A stretch of DNA of 64,000 bases from NCBI GenBank assembly GCA_902623685.1, contig CACNUQ010000004.1:25590-89589 (forward strand), written 5' to 3'. Positions 3,830-57,358 of this stretch are shown piece by piece (position 1 is the first letter of the stretch; the number at the start of each line of letters is the position of its first letter). The notes beneath the pieces were generated by a model. The model was not told the origin of the DNA. It saw nothing but the letters and a program-made list of their open reading frames with translations, and did not search any database. The translations under genes and the position numbers were made by a program. Source of the DNA: an uncultured SAR86 cluster bacterium. Lineage in GTDB: Bacteria; Pseudomonadota; Gammaproteobacteria; Magnimaribacterales; D2472.

Positions 3830-5428
3830 TCATACATCTTTCAGGATCTCTCTAGCAGCATTTTTCCCTGGAAGACCTGTTACTCCTCCACCTGGATGTG
3901 TTCCAGAACCACACATATACAATGATTTTAGCGGCCCTCTATAGTTGCCGTAATTCATTAATGGTCTTGCAGCCCACATTTGATCGAGAGACATTTGTCC
4001 ATGCATAATATCTCCACCAATGAGCCCAAATTTTTCTTCTAAATCTAGTGGAGACAAAATCATCATTCCTAAAATTGATTCTCTAAAATTAGGGGCATGT
4101 TTAGTTACAGTTTCAATAATAGTATCTGCCGCAGTCAATCTATGATCATGCCAAGAACTTCCATCTGGCATAGTGGGAGAAAATTGCTGACAAAATAAAG
4201 ATGCTACATGCTTTCCATCTGGCGCAAGAGTATTGTCCATAGTTGATGGTATTAACATCTCTACAATTGGTGCTGAAGACCAGCCTTGCGACTTAGCATC
4301 AATGAAAGCCTTGTCCATATAATCTAATGTTGGGGCTATTACGATGCCGCTTTGATGATGTTCGGCTACTTCTTTACCAGGCAGTGCAGAAAAATCTGGC
4401 AATTCAGTGAGGGCAACATTCATTCTTAAAGTTCCAGATCCACACTTGTATCCATCCATGCCTCGATTAAATTCTGGCTCTAATTCATCTTCAGAAATTA
4501 ATTTTTTGTAAAGTAATTTTGGGTTCAGATTAGAAATTATTTTTTTAGCTACGATCGGGCTTCCGTCCTCAAGCTCAATACCGACGGCTGCATTATCTTT
4601 AACTATTACTTTTTTTACAGGGGCATCTGTAAAAATCTTTACTCCCATATTTTTGCAGGCTTTTTCCATGGCTTGAGTAATCGCACCCATGCCACCAATA
4701 GCATGACCCCAAGCTCCTTTTTCTCCATCAATTTCACCAAACACATGATGCAGCAAAACATAAGCAGAACCTGGAGTATCTGGACTTGCAAAATTTCCAA
4801 CTATTGAATCAAAGCCAAATGCAGCTTTTATATGCTCATTTTCAAACCATGAATCAAGAAATGATCGAGCGCTTTTTGTAAAGAGATCATATACATCTCT
4901 GTGTACTTGATTTCCCTTAGTTGCAATTGGCCAAAGCTGCAATGCTGCACTTAGTGCAGCCTTTATTCCTTGTTTTGGATTGGGAGGCGTCTTAACCGAG
5001 AGATCTCTAAGAACGTCAGCAACGGCTTCAATACGAGTATAATATTCAGGCAATCTAGCCGCATCTTTTTTAGAAAATTTTCTAAACTCTTCCTGCGTTT
5101 TTTCTAATCCTCCGCCTAGTTTTAAATATGTTGTATTGTCGATAGGAAGAAAATTCGAAATTGGACGCTTTACAATTTTTAAACCATATTCTTTGAGTTT
5201 CATTTCTTTGATAATTTCTGGATTTAATAAACTGACCGTATAACTTGCAACAGAATTTTTAAACCCAGGATGAAATTCTTCAGTAACCGCAGCACCTCCT
5301 ACAATCGATCTTCTTTCAAAGATATTTACTTTCAAGCCTTTTGATGCCAGATAATATGCGCAGACTAGACCGTTGTGTCCACCTCCAATAATAATTGCAT
5401 CCGTTGAGTTTTTAGTATTTGGCATCAC
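3830..5428 (-). CDS. Phytoene-desaturase-family (CrtI/PYROXD2-like) FAD-dependent oxidoreductase
   Basis: N-terminal dinucleotide fold DAIIIGGGHNGLVCAYYLASKGLKVNIFERRSIVGGAA; C-terminal GSGTHPGGGVTGLPG, typical of the family. Confidence 0.75.
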   Translation of the reverse strand: MMPNTKNSTDAIIIGGGHNGLVCAYYLASKGLKVNIFERRSIVGGAAVTEEFHPGFKNSVASYTVSLLNPEIIKEMKLKEYGLKIVKRPISNFLPIDNTTYLKLGGGLEKTQEEFRKFSKKDAARLPEYYTRIEAVADVLRDLSVKTPPNPKQGIKAALSAALQLWPIATKGNQVHRDVYDLFTKSARSFLDSWFENEHIKAAFGFDSIVGNFASPDTPGSAYVLLHHVFGEIDGEKGAWGHAIGGMGAITQAMEKACKNMGVKIFTDAPVKKVIVKDNAAVGIELEDGSPIVAKKIISNLNPKLLYKKLISEDELEPEFNRGMDGYKCGSGTLRMNVALTELPDFSALPGKEVAEHHQSGIVIAPTLDYMDKAFIDAKSQGWSSAPIVEMLIPSTMDNTLAPDGKHVASLFCQQFSPTMPDGSSWHDHRLTAADTIIETVTKHAPNFRESILGMMILSPLDLEEKFGLIGGDIMHGQMSLDQMWAARPLMNYGNYRGPLKSLYMCGSGTHPGGGVTGLPGKNAAREILKDV

Positions 5429-5512: not shown

Positions 5513-6346
5513 ATGAAAAAAAAATTTAAACTAGTAGCCTTTGCTATACCTTTCTTCTTTTTAATTTCATGTTCCGATTCAAATGATGTTCAGGAATCCA
5601 ATGATGTTCAGGAAAATCAAATTACTTGGGATGCAACAAATTACACCATGTATAACGAATTCATGCAATGTACAGCAGGTGAAGACTATAGCCAAGAAGC
5701 TCTTGATGACATGATTGACTCATGGAGAGGGCTTGGATTATCAGAATCTTTACTAGGAGGATGGGGATATGTTTCAGTATCTCCAAATGAAAGCTCCTTC
5801 AATAATTATTGGGAACTGAGTTGGTCTTCAAAAGAAGAGGCTGATGCAGCATGGCAGGAATGGGCAGCCAGTGAAGATGCTATGGCTTGGATTGAGCAGA
5901 CTGCTTCAGTACTTCAATGTGATGGCGATAATAGGGATGGATACGATTTTATTTTCCCATACGATCCATATGCTTTTGGCGAATCTCCTGAGGATGGATC
6001 TTTTGGTGCAGCATTTTCACCATGCACACTAAATGAGGGCATGGGTCAAGAAGATCTTAATAAAGCAATCATTAGCTACAATGTATGGTTGGACGGGATC
6101 GATCAATCTGAAGTAAGAGGTTTTTATGCATACGGAATATATATTCCTGAGGATAAAACTGCTGATGAAGATTTTTGGTTTGGAAACTTTCATGAAAATC
6201 TTGAAACTATGAGCGAAGGCAATAAATTATGGGAAGCTACAGGTGGCGATGCAAAGGCTGAATTAGAATCAGTTAGTACATGTGGAGAGCCTGAGATTTC
6301 CAATGGTCAGGTATTTCTAGATCCAACTAAACCAGAATTTTCTTAA
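5513..6346 (+). CDS. Acidic Trp-rich lipoprotein of unknown function with an internal two-domain duplication
   Basis: Signal peptide plus lipobox (FFFLISC). Two similar halves share a C...W...W..S.EEA/E...W...C pattern. No family recognised. Confidence 0.6.
   Translation: MKKKFKLVAFAIPFFFLISCSDSNDVQESNDVQENQITWDATNYTMYNEFMQCTAGEDYSQEALDDMIDSWRGLGLSESLLGGWGYVSVSPNESSFNNYWELSWSSKEEADAAWQEWAASEDAMAWIEQTASVLQCDGDNRDGYDFIFPYDPYAFGESPEDGSFGAAFSPCTLNEGMGQEDLNKAIISYNVWLDGIDQSEVRGFYAYGIYIPEDKTADEDFWFGNFHENLETMSEGNKLWEATGGDAKAELESVSTCGEPEISNGQVFLDPTKPEFS
5579..5614 (+). repeat. 18-bp tandem repeat x2 (tcAaatgatgttcaggaa / tcCaatgatgttcaggaa) encoding SNDVQE-SNDVQE
   Basis: Read directly in the sequence just after the lipobox of the 5513-6346 ORF. 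Confidence 0.9.
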
Positions 6347-18794: not shown

Positions 18795-19573
18795 ATAATT
18801 TATTTTCTCCAAATTATCCAGAAGGAAGAAACCTCTTTAAAGGAAAAAATATACTTTTAACTGCAGCAGCAGGATCTGGAATTGGCTTTTCTACAGCTAA
18901 ACGATTTCTTGAGGAGGGCGCTAATGTTTTTATCTCTGATGTTCACGAGGCTCGTTTAGATGAAGCTATAAAAAATTTAAAAGACATTAATCTTGGTGCA
19001 GTCGAGGGTTGTCTTTGCAATGTGACAAGTGATGAGGATATTGAAATTATGTTTAATAAAGCCATTTCTTGTTTTTCTCATTTAGATGGCGTCATCAATA
19101 ATGCTGGATTAGGTGGTGAGTCTAGCCTAGTGAACATGACTAATGAGGCATGGAATTTAGTTATGGATGTAACTTTAAATGGTGCAATGAAAATTATGAG
19201 AGCAGCAATTCCCATTCTCAAAGATACCCAAGGAGTGATTGTAAATAATGCTTCTGTTTTGGGTTGGAGAGCGCAAGCTGGTCAATCTCATTATGCAGCT
19301 GCTAAAGCAGGAGTAATGGCATTAACAAGGTGTGTAGCAATGGAAACAGTAGATTATGGTATAAGAATTAACGCTGTGGCTCCTAGCCTTGCAATCAACC
19401 CTCATCTTTCTAAAACTAGTTCAGATGAATTAATTGCAGACCTCGAATCCAAGGAAGCATATGGAAGAGGTGCAGAGCCTTGGGAAATTGCAAATATAAT
19501 TTTATTTCTAGCATCAGACCTATCTTCTTATATGACTGGCGAAATAGTATCCGCCTCATCTCAAAAAGCCTGA
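18791..19573 (+). CDS. Short-chain dehydrogenase/reductase (SDR)
   Basis: ATG at 18791 forms an ATGA overlap with the thiolase stop (the track start at 18785 is a TTG). TAAAGSGIG, NNAG, YAAAKAG. Confidence 0.8.
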   Translation: MNNLFSPNYPEGRNLFKGKNILLTAAAGSGIGFSTAKRFLEEGANVFISDVHEARLDEAIKNLKDINLGAVEGCLCNVTSDEDIEIMFNKAISCFSHLDGVINNAGLGGESSLVNMTNEAWNLVMDVTLNGAMKIMRAAIPILKDTQGVIVNNASVLGWRAQAGQSHYAAAKAGVMALTRCVAMETVDYGIRINAVAPSLAINPHLSKTSSDELIADLESKEAYGRGAEPWEIANIILFLASDLSSYMTGEIVSASSQKA

Positions 19574-20265
19574 TGGAAAAAGTTGCCATTCAGCTATGGA
19601 AAAATTCAAATCTAGATGCAATTGATTTCAAAAACTTTCTCATTAATGAAGTACCTCGCTCTTTAAAGGATCACATCTCAGGCTATCAAGTAAACTTGGC
19701 AGATGAAGACGTCAAAGAGGCTGCTGGCTTAATTCAATCGTGTTATCCACCAAGCCCAAATGCTATTATCTTCTTAAAAGTAAAAAACTTTTTTCATTTT
19801 GAGCAAAAGCTTTCAATATTTGAATCGCATGCTAAAAATTTTTTTAGTTATATTGTTAGCGAATCTAAAATTATTGAAGTTGATGATTCTAAGAACCTAA
19901 ATAGGCGAACTGATGGATTTTCTCAAATTGTTTTCCTTGAAAAGCCAAAAAATATTGATAGTTTTGATTGGTTTGATCATTGGACACATCATCACACTGA
20001 AATCGCAATAAAAACTCAATCAAATTTTATTTATACACAAAATACGGTTGTAAGAAAAATTAACAAAGAATCTCCAAATTTTATTGCCATCATTGAAGAA
20101 TGCTTTCCAAGTGGAGCAATGTCAGATCAAGAAGAATTCTATGCTGCTAAGGGAAACCCAACATTGCTGAAAAAAAATGCAGAAATCATGATGGAAAGTT
20201 GCAATAAATTCATTGATTTTTCAAAAATTGAAGTTATCCCAACAAGTAGATATTTAGTGATATAG
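19573..20265 (+). CDS. Hypothetical protein embedded in the catabolic operon (possibly a tandem EthD/dimeric alpha-beta-barrel-like fold; unverified)
   Basis: ATG at 19573 overlaps the SDR TGA (TGATG). The track start at 19480 lies inside the SDR gene. No motif recognised with confidence. Confidence 0.5.
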   Translation: MEKVAIQLWKNSNLDAIDFKNFLINEVPRSLKDHISGYQVNLADEDVKEAAGLIQSCYPPSPNAIIFLKVKNFFHFEQKLSIFESHAKNFFSYIVSESKIIEVDDSKNLNRRTDGFSQIVFLEKPKNIDSFDWFDHWTHHHTEIAIKTQSNFIYTQNTVVRKINKESPNFIAIIEECFPSGAMSDQEEFYAAKGNPTLLKKNAEIMMESCNKFIDFSKIEVIPTSRYLVI

Positions 20266-26846: not shown

Positions 26847-26932
26847 CTAATTTGATTGCTTTGATACTCGTTGATTAATTTCAATATATATATAATAGTA
26901 ATTATTGGATTAGATAATATAGGGAGAAAATT

Positions 26933-27382
26933 TTGACTGATCAAGAGCTCATAGCACCTGATTTACCAGAACAGAGAGACCCAAAGAAAGCTCAACTGAA
27001 GCCTGGATGGTATAAAGTTGCTGATAGCAATGACATAGGTTCAATGGAGGCCATACAAGTGGATGATTTTCCTACGCAAATCGTAGTATGGAGAGGCAAA
27101 GATGATCAATTATCAGCGCTCGACTTATATTGTAGACACATGGGTGCATCATTGGCTTGCGGGGAGGTTGAAGAAGATGGAATTAGGTGTCCTTTCCATG
27201 CGTGGCGATGGTCTGGAGAGGGTCCATGCAATGAAGTACCTTATGCAAAGAGGATACCTCCAAAAGCTATTACTCGTTCATGGGAAGTGGATGAGCTTGA
27301 CGGCTCAATTTATGTTTGGTTTGATAGAGATGGTAATTCTGCAGATTTAAATGGAGAAAGAATAGATGAGCTCAGTTTTTAA
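26933..27382 (+). CDS. Stand-alone Rieske [2Fe-2S] domain protein (KshA N-terminal-domain-like)
   Basis: TTG start 5 nt after AGGGAGA. Rieske ligands CRHMG...CPFHAWRW. Ends after the YVWFDRDGN segment that in KshA links to the catalytic domain. Confidence 0.8.
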   Translation: MTDQELIAPDLPEQRDPKKAQLKPGWYKVADSNDIGSMEAIQVDDFPTQIVVWRGKDDQLSALDLYCRHMGASLACGEVEEDGIRCPFHAWRWSGEGPCNEVPYAKRIPPKAITRSWEVDELDGSIYVWFDRDGNSADLNGERIDELSF

Positions 27383-28238
27383 AGAAGATATTTTAACCAG
27401 CGACCTTCCTGATAGATTCCCTAGGGGTTGGTTTGCGCTTGGTCATCAGAGAGATTTTCCTGTTGGAGAGACTAAAAATATATTTGGATTTAACAGAAAA
27501 ATTAAAGTTCTCAGAACAGATGATGGAATTAGTATTGATGTTGGTGACGGCGAACCATGGCCAGTTTTGGAAAGGAATCAAATGGTTTTAGTTTGGCATG
27601 ATGTTGAAAAGGGAGATCCTGATTATCTGCCCAAAAAAATAGAAGAGTGTTACTCCGATGAGTGGTCAGATTATGGAATGGCTAGTTTTCTTGTAAAAAA
27701 TAATTGCCGTGAACTTATAGACAATATGGCAGATAAAGGTCATTTTGGTCCTGTGCACCAGGCTCCATTCGAAGGTTTTTGGAATGAAGCTAAGGACCAT
27801 ACTTACACCCAAGAAATGACAGCAGACAGTCCTATTCTCGGACGCGATCTTTTTTCACAAGCAACTTATGAGGGTCCAGCCTATATGACAACATACATGA
27901 GTGCAGTGCATGACGGCATGAAGGTTGAGAGCAGGCTTGCAGTAACTCACATTCCATTAACATTGACATCATTTCAAATTAACTTTGGGGTTATGGTAAA
28001 AAAAGTTCCAGGTATGTCAGCTGAAGATGAGGCAGCTTTTATTCAGGGATATGTCGATGCAAATAATTATGCTTTTGGGCAAGATGTTGCGATTTGGGAA
28101 AATAAAATATATATACCCGATCCAGTAGTATGTGATGGCGATGGCCCACTTAGAAAGTTAAGAAAATGGTATGGACAGTTTCTAGTCAATAGAGCAGATA
28201 TTCCCTCTGGATTGGATCTTAAAAAAAGAGAATTCTAA
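27366..28238 (+). CDS. KshA-like oxygenase catalytic subunit with a ligand-less vestigial Rieske fold
   Basis: Own SD (GGAG) and ATG, overlapping the upstream ORF by 17 nt. Mononuclear-iron motif DNMADKGHFGPVH (D-x2-H-x4-H) and QDVAIWENK...DGPLRKLRKWYGQF. The N-terminus RGWFALGHQRDF...LVWHD has no Cys/His cluster ligands. Confidence 0.8.
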   Translation: MSSVFKEDILTSDLPDRFPRGWFALGHQRDFPVGETKNIFGFNRKIKVLRTDDGISIDVGDGEPWPVLERNQMVLVWHDVEKGDPDYLPKKIEECYSDEWSDYGMASFLVKNNCRELIDNMADKGHFGPVHQAPFEGFWNEAKDHTYTQEMTADSPILGRDLFSQATYEGPAYMTTYMSAVHDGMKVESRLAVTHIPLTLTSFQINFGVMVKKVPGMSAEDEAAFIQGYVDANNYAFGQDVAIWENKIYIPDPVVCDGDGPLRKLRKWYGQFLVNRADIPSGLDLKKREF

Positions 28239-28264: not shown

Positions 28265-28732
28265 GTGAAAGTTTCGCTAGATGATCTTGACCATAAAATC
28301 CTAGAAATCTTAGAGCTTGACGGTCGTGCACCAGCAAAATCAATTGCTGAAAAATTGTCTATCAACGAAGTAACTGTTAGTAAAAGATTATCAAAAATCA
28401 TCGATGGAGGTTTTTGTAAAATTATAGCCATAGCTGATTTTGAAAAGTGTGGCTATGATTATTTACTTCCTGTAGGAATTAGAGTTCAGGGCGATAAATT
28501 AGAGGAGGTAGCCGAGATACTTTCAAATCAAAAAGAAATTTTTAGCGTTAATGTTGTCAGTGGAATACAAGATATTGAAATTCTATGCGCAACTAAAAGC
28601 TTACATGAAACAAAAATATTTTTAGATGAAACATTGCCATCAATTGTTGGAATAAAAAGTATTGCTCCTGCAATAGCATCTAGTGTGTATAAATTTGAAA
28701 CTGACTGGACTCCCTTTGCAAATGAAGCTTGA
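28265..28732 (+). CDS. Lrp/AsnC family transcriptional regulator
   Basis: GTG start. N-terminal HTH LDHKILEILELDGRAPAKSIAEKLSINEVTVSKRL followed by a RAM-like domain. Confidence 0.75.
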   Translation: MKVSLDDLDHKILEILELDGRAPAKSIAEKLSINEVTVSKRLSKIIDGGFCKIIAIADFEKCGYDYLLPVGIRVQGDKLEEVAEILSNQKEIFSVNVVSGIQDIEILCATKSLHETKIFLDETLPSIVGIKSIAPAIASSVYKFETDWTPFANEA

Positions 28733-29177
28733 CCAAACTGATAAAAAAATCATTCAATTGCTAGGTGCAGATGCAAGAATGTCAAATAATCAAATGGCGA
28801 AAGTAATTGGAGTTACAGAGGGCACTGTTAGAAATAGAATTCAAAAACTTATTCAAAATAAGGTAATAAAAATTTCTGTAATCAATAACATTAACCGTTT
28901 AGAAAATCCTTCTTTAGCTTTTGTTGGTTTGGATGTTGAAACGCGCTCCAAAGATTCAGTTGCAAAAGCTCTTTCAAAAATGAAAGAAGTAAGGTTTGTT
29001 TCAACTTTATTGGGCCGTCATGACCTAATGGTTTTTATTCTTGCAGAGGATGTCACCAAGCTTTCAAAAGTACTATATGAAGAAATTTCTTCTTTGCCCG
29101 GTGTAAGATTTTCAGAATCCTCTATTGGATTAAAATATTACAAATATGATTATCGATGGGCGAGGATACTAGATTGA
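28722..29177 (+). CDS. Lrp/AsnC family transcriptional regulator (second copy)
   Basis: ATG giving MKLDQTDKKIIQLLGADARMSNNQMAKVIGVTEGTVRNRIQKL. Overlaps the upstream regulator by 11 nt. Confidence 0.75.
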   Translation: MKLDQTDKKIIQLLGADARMSNNQMAKVIGVTEGTVRNRIQKLIQNKVIKISVINNINRLENPSLAFVGLDVETRSKDSVAKALSKMKEVRFVSTLLGRHDLMVFILAEDVTKLSKVLYEEISSLPGVRFSESSIGLKYYKYDYRWARILD

Positions 29178-36699: not shown

Positions 36700-37215
36700 G
36701 TGATAAGAGATTTTCCCTATGTCACATACATAATTATTGGCTCAAAAGAAAGGCTCTCAAAAGTTAAATCTTATCAAATCGAGGAAGGGGTTGAGTGTTT
36801 GCTTTGCCCTTTCTCTTCTATAGAAGAGCTTCCATCTTTACTAGATTCTAAAATTGCAGAACTACAATCTGAGGTAATCTCAATAATTCCCGCTGGAGCT
36901 TTTCCAAAAAAGCTTGCTAGAAAACAGCTATTACATTTTTCAAAAAGTAAATATCAATTTTGGGGCTGGTATCATTTTGGAAATAAATTTAAAGGCGCAC
37001 TTCAGAGCATTGGAAAGTTAAATACATTTTTTAATAAAGTGCCTCAAGTTGAACAGGGAATTTTTTTTACCAAATCATTGTATTTCTCTGTAGGTGGCTT
37101 AGGAGAAACTGGCACTAATCCATTTTCAGAGCTAGCAAGAAGATTTTATCTTCGATTAGATCCACAAAATCCACTTCCATCCCTTACAATAAGAGCAAAA
37201 TCTATTCTAAATTAA
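36700..37215 (+). CDS. Hypothetical protein (weak resemblance to the C-terminal part of GT-A-type glycosyltransferase-like proteins)
   Basis: GTG-initiated 171-aa ORF. Only the EQGIFFTKSLYFSVGGLGE...FSELARRF segment looks family-like. Assignment is weak. Confidence 0.35.
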   Translation: MIRDFPYVTYIIIGSKERLSKVKSYQIEEGVECLLCPFSSIEELPSLLDSKIAELQSEVISIIPAGAFPKKLARKQLLHFSKSKYQFWGWYHFGNKFKGALQSIGKLNTFFNKVPQVEQGIFFTKSLYFSVGGLGETGTNPFSELARRFYLRLDPQNPLPSLTIRAKSILN

Positions 37216-42184: not shown

Positions 42185-42564
42185 TAAAGATAAATTTTTT
42201 CTTGTTAGCTTCTTTTTTTGTTTTCTCTTCATTCTGTTTTGCAGAAATAGTTTATCAATTTAATGACCCTGTTCAGGAAAAAAGATTTTATTCATTAATC
42301 TCAGAAATTAGATGCCCAAAATGTACTAGTGGCAGTATCGCTAGCTCTGATGCCCCAGTATCAAGAGATTTAAAAAATAAGGTATATGAGCTTGTGATTG
42401 AAGGCTCATCAGATGTTGAAATAAAAAATTATGTATCAGATAGGTTTGGTAATTTTTCAGATTATAGGCCCCCGTTAGAAGGTGCAAATTATATCCTTTG
42501 GTTATCACCCTTTATTTTTTTCTTTCTAATCGCAGCAATCTTTTTTTTCAAACGAAGAGTTTAA
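42181..42564 (+). CDS. ccmH: Cytochrome c-type biogenesis protein CcmH
   Basis: Signal sequence, LISEIRCPKC (R-C-x-x-C) motif, C-terminal TM helix. Confidence 0.85.
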   Translation: MIKINFFLLASFFVFSSFCFAEIVYQFNDPVQEKRFYSLISEIRCPKCTSGSIASSDAPVSRDLKNKVYELVIEGSSDVEIKNYVSDRFGNFSDYRPPLEGANYILWLSPFIFFFLIAAIFFFKRRV

Positions 42565-43352
42565 TGCTATTTATTATTGCTTCTACAATAATTATATCAT
42601 TGCCTGTAATTGCCTATTTACTTAACCCTTTATCCAATCAAAAATCACTTATTTTTTTGGTTACCATTTTAGTGTTTGGGGGATTTGTTTTAAATTTTAT
42701 TTCTAAAAACCCATTCATAGGTTCTTGGGCTCAAGCTACTCAATCTGAATTAATGCTGAGAACTATTTCTCGCGATGAAGAGGTTGATAAGCTTCTTTTA
42801 AATCAATATATTTTTAGTAATACGTCAGAAGAGCAATCTTTTTTAATTGGCACTCAATTTTTTTATAAAGCCCTGGAGGCACAATCATTTATTTCGGCAG
42901 AAAGTATATTAAAATATTTAAATGTAGAGTTTGTATCCGAGAATTTTCAGATTCCTATTTTTAATCTTTTGGCAGATTTAAGAGATGAAAAATATCCTGA
43001 AATTGCAAATTCAAATTTGCTTATCAACATTGAAAATCCCACTAATTGCAATATGCAGTTATTACAGTTGGGCGTGTCAATACCAAATGGACCAGGAGTC
43101 AACATTGCCTCAAAAGAGCTTTTGTCTCCAAATATTGATGTGCCTATAAAGCTGGATAAATCTAATTCGATGGTAAGAGGCTTTGATATTGCTTCTGCCT
43201 TTATTCAGCAAGAAGTCATCAAGGTTAAGGCTTTAGCTGAATGTAATAAATTTACTTATGAAGCATTTAAGTCGATAGATTTAAAGTATTCGCAAGATAA
43301 CCAAGAGGAGCTATTTTTTTATACTGATGAATGGTTAAAAAAGGAACAATAG
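42564..43352 (+). CDS. ccmI: CcmI-like cytochrome c biogenesis accessory protein (assigned mainly by position)
   Basis: ATG overlapping the ccmH stop (TAATG). Two N-terminal TM helices then a helical soluble domain. Last gene of the ccm operon. No strong motif seen. Confidence 0.45.
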   Translation: MLFIIASTIIISLPVIAYLLNPLSNQKSLIFLVTILVFGGFVLNFISKNPFIGSWAQATQSELMLRTISRDEEVDKLLLNQYIFSNTSEEQSFLIGTQFFYKALEAQSFISAESILKYLNVEFVSENFQIPIFNLLADLRDEKYPEIANSNLLINIENPTNCNMQLLQLGVSIPNGPGVNIASKELLSPNIDVPIKLDKSNSMVRGFDIASAFIQQEVIKVKALAECNKFTYEAFKSIDLKYSQDNQEELFFYTDEWLKKEQ

Positions 43353-51775: not shown

Positions 51776-51835
51776 GGTTTAAATATTAAATAAATGCCTT
51801 ATATTAGTAGTATTATTTACAGATTACTATTACAT

Positions 51836-52351
51836 ATGACACTAAAAAGAAATTTTTCAATACTTACAGCATTATTATTTTTTGCTGCTTGCACATCCTC
51901 GCCATTTACTGAGTTAAATAGCAGGGATAATTTCCAGTTAGAGGAAGGAACATCTTTTAAAATTCAATTAAATAAGGACTCTTTGCCAGTGGAGATGGAT
52001 CCAATTTTAATTGAAAACTTGGGAGATGCTGCTAAAAATTACTTGGAAGGAGTAGGGTATGAATTTTCAAATGATTCTTCAATTTCTATTGATGTAAGTG
52101 TCACAACAAAAGATAAAATTAGGTATGATGATTTTCGGTTTTATGGCTATCCAATGTATAGAAGCTATTTGTATGAGCCGGACAGAATAAATACTATTCC
52201 GGAATTTTTTCTCCGAATATCTGTTATGGATGATGAGGTTGAAAAGACACTTTGGACTGGGCTAACTAAATGGCGGAAAGGATCAAGCTATGCTCCTACT
52301 GATATGCAATCTGCCGAGATGTTGGTAGAGAATTTATTAGTTAATCTTTAA
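51836..52351 (+). CDS. Small lipoprotein of unknown function
   Basis: Start placed at MTLKRNFSILTALLFFAAC (signal peptide plus lipobox); the track start at 51794 is also possible. Its 3' end overlaps mnmC convergently by 11 nt. Confidence 0.5.
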   Translation: MTLKRNFSILTALLFFAACTSSPFTELNSRDNFQLEEGTSFKIQLNKDSLPVEMDPILIENLGDAAKNYLEGVGYEFSNDSSISIDVSVTTKDKIRYDDFRFYGYPMYRSYLYEPDRINTIPEFFLRISVMDDEVEKTLWTGLTKWRKGSSYAPTDMQSAEMLVENLLVNL

Positions 52352-56731: not shown

Positions 56732-57358
56732 ATGAAAATCTCAGCAGATAAAGAAGAGCACTCATACTTTAATTCAAACTCAAGTGGTTTATTTCTTGGA
56801 ATTGTTTTTTGTTTAATTCTTTTTGGAATTCTTGGATTATCTATTTGGGCCACTGAGATTTCTAAATCATCAGAAAAGGTTAATTTAAAGTTTGAATCAA
56901 GGCTGAGTATTTTAGAGGAACAACTTCAGTTAGCCGATTCAACCTCTACAGAATTTTTAACAGATATTAATACACAACTTCAATTTCTTGATAAAGAAAT
57001 AAGGAAATTGTGGGATTTAAGTAATAAACGAAATAAAGCAAATATTTCTAAATTGACAAAAGAAATAGACAAACACTCTTCTGCTTTAAAAGATATTGCA
57101 TTAACACAAACAAATGATCAAAAAAATATTCAAAATATTAAAAATCAATCGCAAAAGTTGCTTGATTCAGTAGGGGAATTAACTCAGCTATCTCAAGACA
57201 ACCAAAAAGCTCAAAATAAAATAGATGAATTAAGCAAAAGTTTTTTAATGCTTGAGGAAACTGTTCAAGCATTTGATGCTTACAGAAGGCAGAATAATGA
57301 AATGCTACAGGAAATTCAATTAGAAATCTCTAGCATAAATACACAAAACACACCTTAA
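56732..57358 (+). CDS. Membrane-anchored coiled-coil protein, unknown function
   Basis: One TM helix (GLFLGIVFCLILFGILGLSIW) followed by Q/K/L/E-rich heptad-like sequence. Confidence 0.5.
   Translation: MKISADKEEHSYFNSNSSGLFLGIVFCLILFGILGLSIWATEISKSSEKVNLKFESRLSILEEQLQLADSTSTEFLTDINTQLQFLDKEIRKLWDLSNKRNKANISKLTKEIDKHSSALKDIALTQTNDQKNIQNIKNQSQKLLDSVGELTQLSQDNQKAQNKIDELSKSFLMLEETVQAFDAYRRQNNEMLQEIQLEISSINTQNTP

Follow-up and report, generated by a model that had tools for sequence, protein, structure and literature searches.

The 64,000-nucleotide stretch of an uncultured SAR86 cluster bacterium of the Magnimaribacterales analyzed here (GenBank assembly GCA_902623685.1, contig CACNUQ010000004.1, positions 25,590 to 89,589; referred to below as the window) carries two overlapping open reading frames (ORFs), each of which resembles a different half of KshA, the oxygenase component of the 3-ketosteroid 9α-hydroxylase KshAB. 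The alpha subunit of a Rieske oxygenase is usually held to carry both metal centers, with NdmCDE named as the one exception. The question raised by the locus is whether ORF1 and ORF2 together make one oxygenase whose Rieske cluster and catalytic iron are supplied by separate polypeptides, as had been proposed from the letters of the DNA alone (the sequence-only reading). We consider this likely. From the anatomy of the two proteins, their conservation and what is known of the family, ORF1 and ORF2 would form a two-gene KshA-like steroid hydroxylase with ORF1 as its sole Rieske center and ORF2 as its catalytic subunit.

ORF1 is made up of a whole Rieske domain plus the inter-domain linker and has no flavin or NAD domain. 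It gave a match to the Pfam Rieske domain (PF00355) with an E-value of 6.5e-21, and the complete ligand set claimed for this 149-residue protein in the sequence-only reading was located as C67, H69, C86, and H89. These four residues are invariant across relatives and, in the alignment to PDB sequences, carry the same numbers as the Rieske ligands of Mycobacterium tuberculosis KshA. The closest PDB relatives of ORF1 are KshA proteins (1e-32, with residues 22-136 colinear with KshA 28-142), as against 4e-4 for the CarAc ferredoxin. The NCBIfam ferredoxin models HcaC and MocE each scored 31.8 bits on ORF1, far below their respective cut-offs of 150 and 136. An AlphaFold2 (AF2) model of ORF1, with a predicted local distance difference test (pLDDT) score of 87, has a complete Rieske fold. 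In Foldseek it comes closest to the Rieske domains of KshA, with 40-42% identity, and the top 50 matches are all alpha3-type Rieske oxygenases with no ferredoxin among them. The protein ends where the catalytic domain would start, reading RIDE at the point where fused relatives read RIDDAYSDEW. A generic Rieske ferredoxin was rejected as an identity for ORF1, since the sequence, curated-model, and fold comparisons favor KshA oxygenase domains; on the same basis we conclude that ORF1 is an oxygenase-type KshA Rieske domain.

In a tree of Rieske domains (115 positions; deeper placement poorly resolved) the ORF1 family was monophyletic in 37 of 50 bootstraps and nested among KshA-type domains, not among the ferredoxin-like Rieske proteins that the sequence-only reading had named as the grouping that would count against its proposal. 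The nearest neighbors of ORF1 by distance are fused marine gammaproteobacterial proteins.

ORF2 matched the KshA_C domain (PF19298) at 3.4e-57, with 194.3 bits against a cut-off of 23.3. Its alignment to KshA falls into two colinear pieces, residues 8-53 with KshA 18-63 and residues 63-283 with KshA 121-354, and nothing in ORF2 corresponds to the stretch of KshA with both Cys/His pairs. The ORF2 residues D123, H126, and H131 correspond in the alignment to D178, H181, and H186 of M. tuberculosis KshA, which with D304 make up the 2-His-1-carboxylate iron site and bridging aspartate of that enzyme. The D-x2-H-x4-H motif is invariant in 35 sequences, and D240, V241, I243, W244, and K247 of the QDV.IW..K motif are likewise invariant among relatives. 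Foldseek comparison of the AF2 model of ORF2 with the KshA crystal structures 4QCK, 4QDF, and 2ZYL gave template modeling (TM) scores of 0.83-0.85. What the sequence-only reading had said of ORF2 in these respects stood up throughout: a protein of 290 residues with its own Shine-Dalgarno sequence and ATG, a 17-nucleotide overlap with ORF1 (27366-27382), a KshA N-terminal pattern that repeats that of ORF1, and retained ligands to the mononuclear iron. The features of the pair, together with stub-type proteins from other organisms discussed below, are listed in Table 1.

Table 1. Positions in the window of the features of the ORF1-ORF2 pair, and setting of stub-type KshA_C proteins found elsewhere
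Feature	Position	Strand	Basis or setting
ORF1 Shine-Dalgarno sequence, GGGAG	26922-26926	+	6 nt ahead of TTG start; read from sequence
ORF1, stand-alone KshA-type Rieske [2Fe-2S] protein, 149 aa	26933-27382	+	Pfam, PDB, AF2, and Foldseek matches
ORF1 cluster-binding segment, CRHMG...CPFH, ligands C67, H69, C86, H89	27131-27199	+	motif location
ORF2 Shine-Dalgarno sequence, GGAG	27353-27356	+	within 3' end of ORF1, nine bases ahead of ATG; read from sequence
ORF2, predicted catalytic subunit, 290 aa: ligand-less Rieske-fold stub and KshA_C non-heme-iron domain	27366-28238	+	
Rieske-fold stub, ORF2 residues 12-80, no cysteine, no cluster ligands	27399-27605	+	
Deletion scar, ORF2 about residues 58-63, D-VGDGE	27537-27554	+	alignments to fused relatives
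D123-x2-H126-x4-H131, bridging Asp and two His iron ligands	27732-27758	+	KshA alignment
D240 in QDVAIWENK, predicted carboxylate iron ligand	28083-28085	+	aligns to KshA QDVEIWKHK
Stub-type proteins P0218, P0227, P0272			no Rieske gene within 4-5 kb
Stub-type protein P0236			short contig, no Rieske gene on contig
Stub-type protein P0310 (L086)			two genes from fused paralog
Stub-type protein P0276 (L091)			ahead of P450 and small ferredoxin
Stub-type protein P0297 (L092, 57% GC)			three stub paralogs and a 233-aa protein ending 12 nt upstream of stub gene

The N-terminal part of ORF2 is a Rieske-fold stub. Because the AF2 model gives this segment a pLDDT of about 90-95 and six β-strands (residues 21-27, 36-41, 44-51, 54-58, 67-70, and 73-78), the stub is predicted to be a folded subdomain and not a disordered relic. 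It contains no cysteine in the window ORF2 or in almost all relatives, and the Cys/His ligand pairs, which the sequence-only reading had named as evidence against itself if ORF2 still carried them, are absent from the ORF2 of every relative. The stub motif LPDRFPRGWF(V/A)LGHQRDF is nearly invariant among relatives. Compared with the nearest fused relatives, which are about 345 residues long, ORF2 is missing 49 residues, from YCPHMG to KAVIKS, and the gap between two landmark motifs is 20 residues as against 69. The sequence-only reading was correct about the 20 residues that are left between these motifs but put the length in KshA-type proteins too low, at roughly 60, so that the loss is about 49 residues and not 40. 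This loss is in-frame, and the same gap is found in all members of the SAR86-type clade. On 105 fused relatives, taken over the N-terminus ahead of the ligands, a profile built from stub residues 12-62 scored up to 51 bits (median, 24), while the best shuffled decoy reached 7.5 bits (n = 5250); as measured by this profile, the stub remnant is homologous to Rieske-fold N-termini well beyond chance. More than 100 homolog clusters of 277-290 residues contain KshA_C alone, and some of these clusters have hundreds to more than 1000 member sequences.

The catalytic domain of ORF2 is nearest to the same fused marine gammaproteobacterial group as ORF1 (P0109, P0119, and P0392). Identity to these fused relatives is 57% for the cluster segment of ORF1 and 52% for the catalytic domain of ORF2, or about equal distance. 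In the N-terminal strands ORF1 and ORF2 are 23% identical to one another and each is about 27% identical to the fused proteins, which are about 65% identical among themselves. The segments common to ORF1 and ORF2 are strongly diverged. An ancestral (R)(Y/F)(A/P)RGW motif has been kept in the stub and lost from SAR86 ORF1. The SAR86-type clade was recovered in 200 of 200 bootstraps, as was the nearest other stub family, that of P0218; the two were jointly monophyletic in 40 of 200 bootstraps, and their deletion boundaries differ.

The two-ORF arrangement recurs in every related locus where it could be seen, as a search suggested in the sequence-only reading bore out. In a genome scan that took one genome per species, ORF2 was present at 74-99% identity in 34 SAR86 genomes, among them single-cell genomes, metagenome-assembled genomes (MAGs), and the complete chromosome CP097973.1. 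Metagenomic relatives were found at 81, 60, and 52% identity. A homolog of ORF1 lies directly upstream of ORF2 in all of the loci with enough upstream DNA (38/38). These take in 33 of the 34 species-level SAR86 loci, the remaining one being cut by a contig end. The other loci among the 38 include L001 (52% identical) and L002 (60% identical), which has a different gene context and a GC content of 43%; that of the window is 35.5%. An intact, undivided kshA occupies this position in none of the related SAR86 genomes.

A stop codon separates ORF1 from ORF2 in every locus. The relative frame of the two is 0, +1, or +2, and the spacing runs from -17 to +76 nucleotides with a mode of 15. ORF2 begins with ATG in every locus, and an AGGAG-type Shine-Dalgarno sequence stands 6-10 nucleotides ahead of this ATG in nearly every related locus, that of L030 being unclear. 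The two genes are adjacent and probably co-transcribed, with separate, tightly spaced translation starts; a promoter and terminator scan of the pair found no excess over shuffled sequences. The catalytic domain had the lowest median pairwise dN/dS, 0.02, against 0.12 for ORF1 and about 0.2 for the stub; these values indicate strong purifying selection on all parts of the pair. As judged from these loci, the steroid-ring catabolic clusters of SAR86 conserve a two-gene KshA-type pair.

Three details of the pair vary between loci. ORF1 starts with TTG and not ATG in 22 of 39 loci (the window, L006-L024, L031, and L037), each time behind a GGGAGA-type Shine-Dalgarno sequence; set beside the constant ATG of ORF2, this start may give a lower or regulated ratio of ORF1 to ORF2 translation. 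In many SAR86 loci (L013, L016-L023, L035, and others) ORF1 and ORF2 share a frame, with one stop codon and 3-6 codons between them, so that any readthrough, if it took place now and then, would join Rieske domain, stub, and catalytic domain in one chain. In one SAR86 sub-lineage (L027-L029, L034, L038, and L039) ORF1 is 132 residues long. There IMVMLQKA stands in place of YVWFD, the motif of the last strand, and no linker tail follows, so that the C terminus of this Rieske protein is evolutionarily plastic.

The pair is placed in a steroid-ring (9,10-seco) catabolic cluster. Upstream are genes for an HsaC-like extradiol dioxygenase, an IpdAB-like CoA transferase, enoyl-CoA hydratases, and a nitronate-monooxygenase-like protein, and also a FadE pair, a thiolase (FadA), short-chain dehydrogenases, a P450, HsaD/E/G/F-like proteins, and a luciferase-like monooxygenase. 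Downstream are a FadD-like ligase and a 2-hydroxyacid dehydrogenase. No fused KshA paralog or other KshA candidate lies within the window. This gene cluster context supports 9α-hydroxylation as the most likely activity of the predicted enzyme. Steroid catabolism in SAR86 is known from passages of two published papers (PMC4810484; PMC11582366), which also contain a "kshA" call, and those passages do not mention a split of the gene.

In the two-gene enzyme as we picture it, electrons from NAD(P)H would reach the ORF1 cluster through a reductase encoded elsewhere. From the cluster they would cross a protein-protein interface to D123 of ORF2 and so to the iron held by H126, H131, and D240. Oxygen would be activated at this iron and a 3-ketosteroid hydroxylated, most likely at C9-alpha, the hydroxylation that would open ring B in the 9,10-seco pathway. 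In the alpha3 Rieske oxygenases the cluster and the iron are about 44 Å apart within one subunit and about 12 Å apart across the interface, and the bridging carboxylate is essential (PMC7948474). Since the fused alpha3 enzymes already pass electrons over a subunit boundary, the split leaves the electron path conceptually intact. The stub would have a structural role, probably packed on its own catalytic domain, and perhaps aids assembly or the docking of ORF1. ORF1 might be either a stable subunit or a dissociable shuttle; the tight gene spacing suggests a stoichiometric assembly of ORF1 and ORF2.

An exhaustive search over 1.84 billion representatives revealed that proteins of the ORF2 type are not confined to SAR86. 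Many further proteins of 250-316 residues are colinear with ORF2 from the RGW motif onward at 25-45% identity. Ten stub-type proteins that were scanned contain KshA_C alone, with no Rieske match even at an E-value of 0.1. The distant stub-type proteins lack Cys/His pairs, and none of them departs from the D-x2-H-x4-H pattern. In the catalytic-domain tree the stub forms fall at several separate points among the fused forms, so the cluster-binding subdomain seems to have been lost recurrently.

The 233-residue protein of L092, a locus from an unrelated organism, has complete Rieske ligands, lacks the iron motif, and has a truncated catalytic domain. We read L092 as an independent and less reduced version of the same division of labor, reached by mirror-image degeneration of paralogs. 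In L086 (277-3699) the P0310 gene is followed by a gene for a nonribosomal peptide synthetase (NRPS) condensation domain and then by a complete fused Rieske and KshA_C paralog with both metal motifs, an order that suggests a setting in natural-product metabolism and, possibly, a trimer of mixed composition. In L091 (468-2850) the P0276 gene is followed by genes for a P450 and a 64-residue Fer4-type ferredoxin, with overlapping stops and starts; genes of the TetR and SnoaL-like types come next. The arrangement could represent a small operon for oxidative tailoring, with a ferredoxin not of the Rieske kind as the donor to the stub protein. We offer tentatively, and think it somewhat less probable than not, the wider proposal that KshA-like oxygenases have repeatedly become modular, a large unrecognized class of stub proteins being served in trans: in SAR86 by a dedicated Rieske-only subunit, in L092 by a paralog whose iron site is dead, and in L086 by a full-length paralog. 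If this were true, heteromeric Rieske oxygenases, with labor divided between their subunits, would be a general result of evolution, and no example of them would be more reduced or more abundant than the SAR86 pair.

Other accounts of the SAR86 locus have to be weighed against a two-gene enzyme. A gene split into two briefly overlapping ORFs is what a frameshift error typically leaves behind, and an assembly or sequencing artefact would explain the split, as would the decay of a kshA pseudogene. The probability of either is negligible. The same architecture is present in independent single-cell genomes, MAGs, CP097973.1, and many metagenomes, and we rejected an artefactual frameshift because the split is found again in 38 loci that differ in frame and spacing. 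Both ORFs contain the N-terminal strands and the VW(F/H)D strand, a duplication that no frameshift can produce; from the VW(F/H)D segment in both, the sequence-only reading had rightly argued that this is not one gene with a simple frameshift. That reading had also named a single fused ORF, or relatives with an intact kshA and a decayed locus, as grounds for abandoning it; none of the 38 related loci has a fused ORF, the relatives have no intact kshA here, and purifying selection acts on both genes. The loss of 49 residues preserves the frame and is shared clade-wide, and the dN/dS values of 0.02-0.2, with strong purifying selection on all parts, led us to reject a pseudogene. The production of one fused polypeptide by recoding, either through a +1/-1 frameshift in the 17-nucleotide overlap or through stop-codon readthrough, might be imagined from that overlap and from those relatives in which one stop codon and a few codons separate ORFs in the same frame. 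We regard it as very improbable and rejected it: frames of 0, +1, and +2 with spacings of -17 to +76 nucleotides fit no single mechanism, ORF2 has its own ATG in all loci and a Shine-Dalgarno sequence in nearly all, and none of the database proteins among the matches listed combines a full Rieske domain with a second, partial one.

More weight attaches to whether ORF1 is the partner of ORF2, and several observations weigh against that part of our reading. ORF1 evolves much faster than ORF2 (53-70% identity versus 74-89%), and some lineages have it shortened to 132 residues. No KshB-type reductase, FNR, or plant-type ferredoxin was found in the 64-kb window by motif scan and Pfam search of nearly all ORFs; a KshB-type reductase may be encoded elsewhere in the genome. 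The stub fills part of the space usually taken by the Rieske domain, which would complicate the predicted docking of ORF1. P0218, P0227, P0272, and P0236 are without a nearby Rieske-only gene, and because the loci of the first three show none within the distance given in Table 1, stub proteins can exist without an adjacent dedicated partner. These partnerless proteins lend themselves to the view that ORF2 draws its electrons from another donor, either a fused KshA paralog elsewhere in the genome, in a mixed trimer, or another ferredoxin, and that ORF1 is a Rieske ferredoxin with another client such as the P450 of the cluster. The fused paralog beside the stub gene of L086, the P450 and small Fer4 ferredoxin in the stub operon of L091, and the P450 gene 5 kb upstream of the pair in the window agree with it. 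We nevertheless think it unlikely, given the adjacency of ORF1 and ORF2 in 38 of 38 loci, including L002 with its different neighborhood and no P450 called, the oxygenase-type rather than ferredoxin-type character of ORF1, and the lack of a fused paralog in the window. Rieske proteins are, moreover, not usual redox partners of P450s. Less probable again is a change of chemistry, in which ORF2 and the other stub proteins would have an iron site that works without external electrons, or a non-redox role, and ORF1 would be kept for an unrelated reason. The many stub-type proteins with no Rieske gene nearby do indicate that loss of the cluster has been tolerated repeatedly. Against this, the bridging aspartate, whose known role is in electron transfer from Rieske cluster to iron, is invariant in ORF2 relatives and in distant stub families; the SAR86 clade always keeps the Rieske gene adjacent and under purifying selection; and the gene cluster needs a 9α-hydroxylase step, for which the window has no other KshA candidate. 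On balance we retain the two-gene hydroxylase.

Such a pair would have originated from a fused ancestor that was duplicated and whose copies then degenerated reciprocally, one being truncated after the linker to give ORF1 and the other losing about 49 internal residues to give ORF2. Because the Rieske paralog with the dead iron site in L092 adjoins a stub-type gene, duplication with reciprocal loss gains comparative support. The sequence-only reading had proposed this, with the duplication being a tandem and partial one; the reciprocal loss is supported, while a partial tandem duplication is indistinguishable from duplication of the whole gene followed by truncation.

The surroundings of the pair contain several further points of note. 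There is no recognizable HsaAB-type flavin monooxygenase pair or clear KstD in the steroid cluster of the window; nearby, the one candidate flavoenzyme is a 532-residue FAD oxidoreductase (3830-5428, minus strand). Those components of the steroid pathway that are missing must be encoded elsewhere in the genome or have been replaced. Between ORF2 and the FadD-like ligase are two tandem, overlapping genes for AsnC/Lrp-type regulators (28265-28732 and 28683-29177, plus strand). In L003-L005, relatives of 81% identity, the ligase comes directly after ORF2, so the regulators represent an insertion particular to the sub-clade of the window; they are also present in L090. Six ORFs of 170-285 residues on the plus strand had no Pfam match at an E-value of ≤1e-5 (19480-20265, 5513-6346, 36700-37215, 42498-43352, 51794-52351, and 56732-57358). 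The first of these, at 19480-20265, is located within the steroid cluster, where it shares about 94 nucleotides with the short-chain dehydrogenase gene that precedes it. Outside SAR86, a Polyketide_cyc2 (SRPBCC) gene adjoins the KshA_C gene both in L002 (6951-7424) and in L085, the unpaired locus of P0218 (6012-6482), and the two genes may have a conserved functional association there. The neighbors in L092 (621-4846), and also in L093, are a PhyH-like dioxygenase gene and an FGE-sulfatase-like gene.

A conserved two-gene version of a Rieske oxygenase would be a natural system in which to take apart, titrate, and re-engineer the transfer of electrons from the Rieske cluster to the iron. Possible uses include the mixing and matching of Rieske donors and the study of the bridging aspartate across a true protein-protein interface. 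There are also consequences for annotation. Homology or hidden Markov model (HMM) screens for "kshA" can match either half, and filters that demand a Rieske and a catalytic domain on one protein would miss the predicted SAR86 enzyme, which affects estimates of marine steroid degradation; SAR86 is among the most abundant bacterial groups of the surface ocean. The wider set of stub-type KshA_C proteins, some of them in natural-product-like contexts, points to uncharacterized enzymology.

Of the known systems, KshA of Mycobacterium and Rhodococcus (2ZYL, 4QCK, 4QDC) is closest to both halves of the pair in sequence and in fold. The Rieske ligand positions are identical, the iron ligands and bridging aspartate are conserved, and both belong with a steroid 9,10-seco gene cluster. 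KshA is a single polypeptide of about 386-394 residues that works as a head-to-tail alpha3 trimer, electrons passing from one subunit to another, whereas the SAR86 Rieske and catalytic domains are on two, the catalytic product keeps a cluster-less stub, there is no KshB in the 64-kb window, and the activity is a predicted one. The nearest full-length relatives of both halves are the fused marine gammaproteobacterial KshA-like proteins P0109, P0119, and P0392. These share the motifs GVMVKK.PGMS and NPVLCDGDGP with the SAR86 pair but are single polypeptides with an intact cluster-binding subdomain. The gene for P0109 adjoins HsaC-like and FadD-like genes, in an arrangement that is not syntenic in detail with the SAR86 locus.

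The Rieske-type ferredoxins of three-component Rieske oxygenases (BphF/BphA3, CarAc, HcaC, and TmoC) are small soluble Rieske-only proteins like ORF1, and they pass electrons to an oxygenase, as ORF1 is predicted to do. Their client oxygenases have Rieske clusters of their own, whereas ORF1 would be the only Rieske center of its enzyme. A search of the open-access literature for a split or two-gene KshA, or for a Rieske oxygenase without a Rieske cluster, yielded NdmCDE only. The remark in the sequence-only reading that no two-polypeptide KshA had been described therefore holds for that literature, but the placing of a Rieske domain on another polypeptide is already known from NdmCDE. In this N7-demethylase of Pseudomonas putida CBB5 the cluster-less NdmC is fed from a Rieske cluster on a different polypeptide (Summers et al. 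2013, reviewed in PMC4408171). The Rieske domain in question is fused to the N-terminus of the reductase NdmD, and the GST-like protein NdmE is required (PMC4408171). NdmC and ORF2 are alike in being catalytic subunits without a Rieske cluster. The SAR86 operon has no reductase gene, and no GST-like domain was found among its genes; ORF1 is instead a free-standing protein of 149 residues. The SAR86 pair further differs from NdmCDE in belonging to the KshA family and not to the Ndm family, and in the retention of a Rieske-fold stub by its catalytic subunit.

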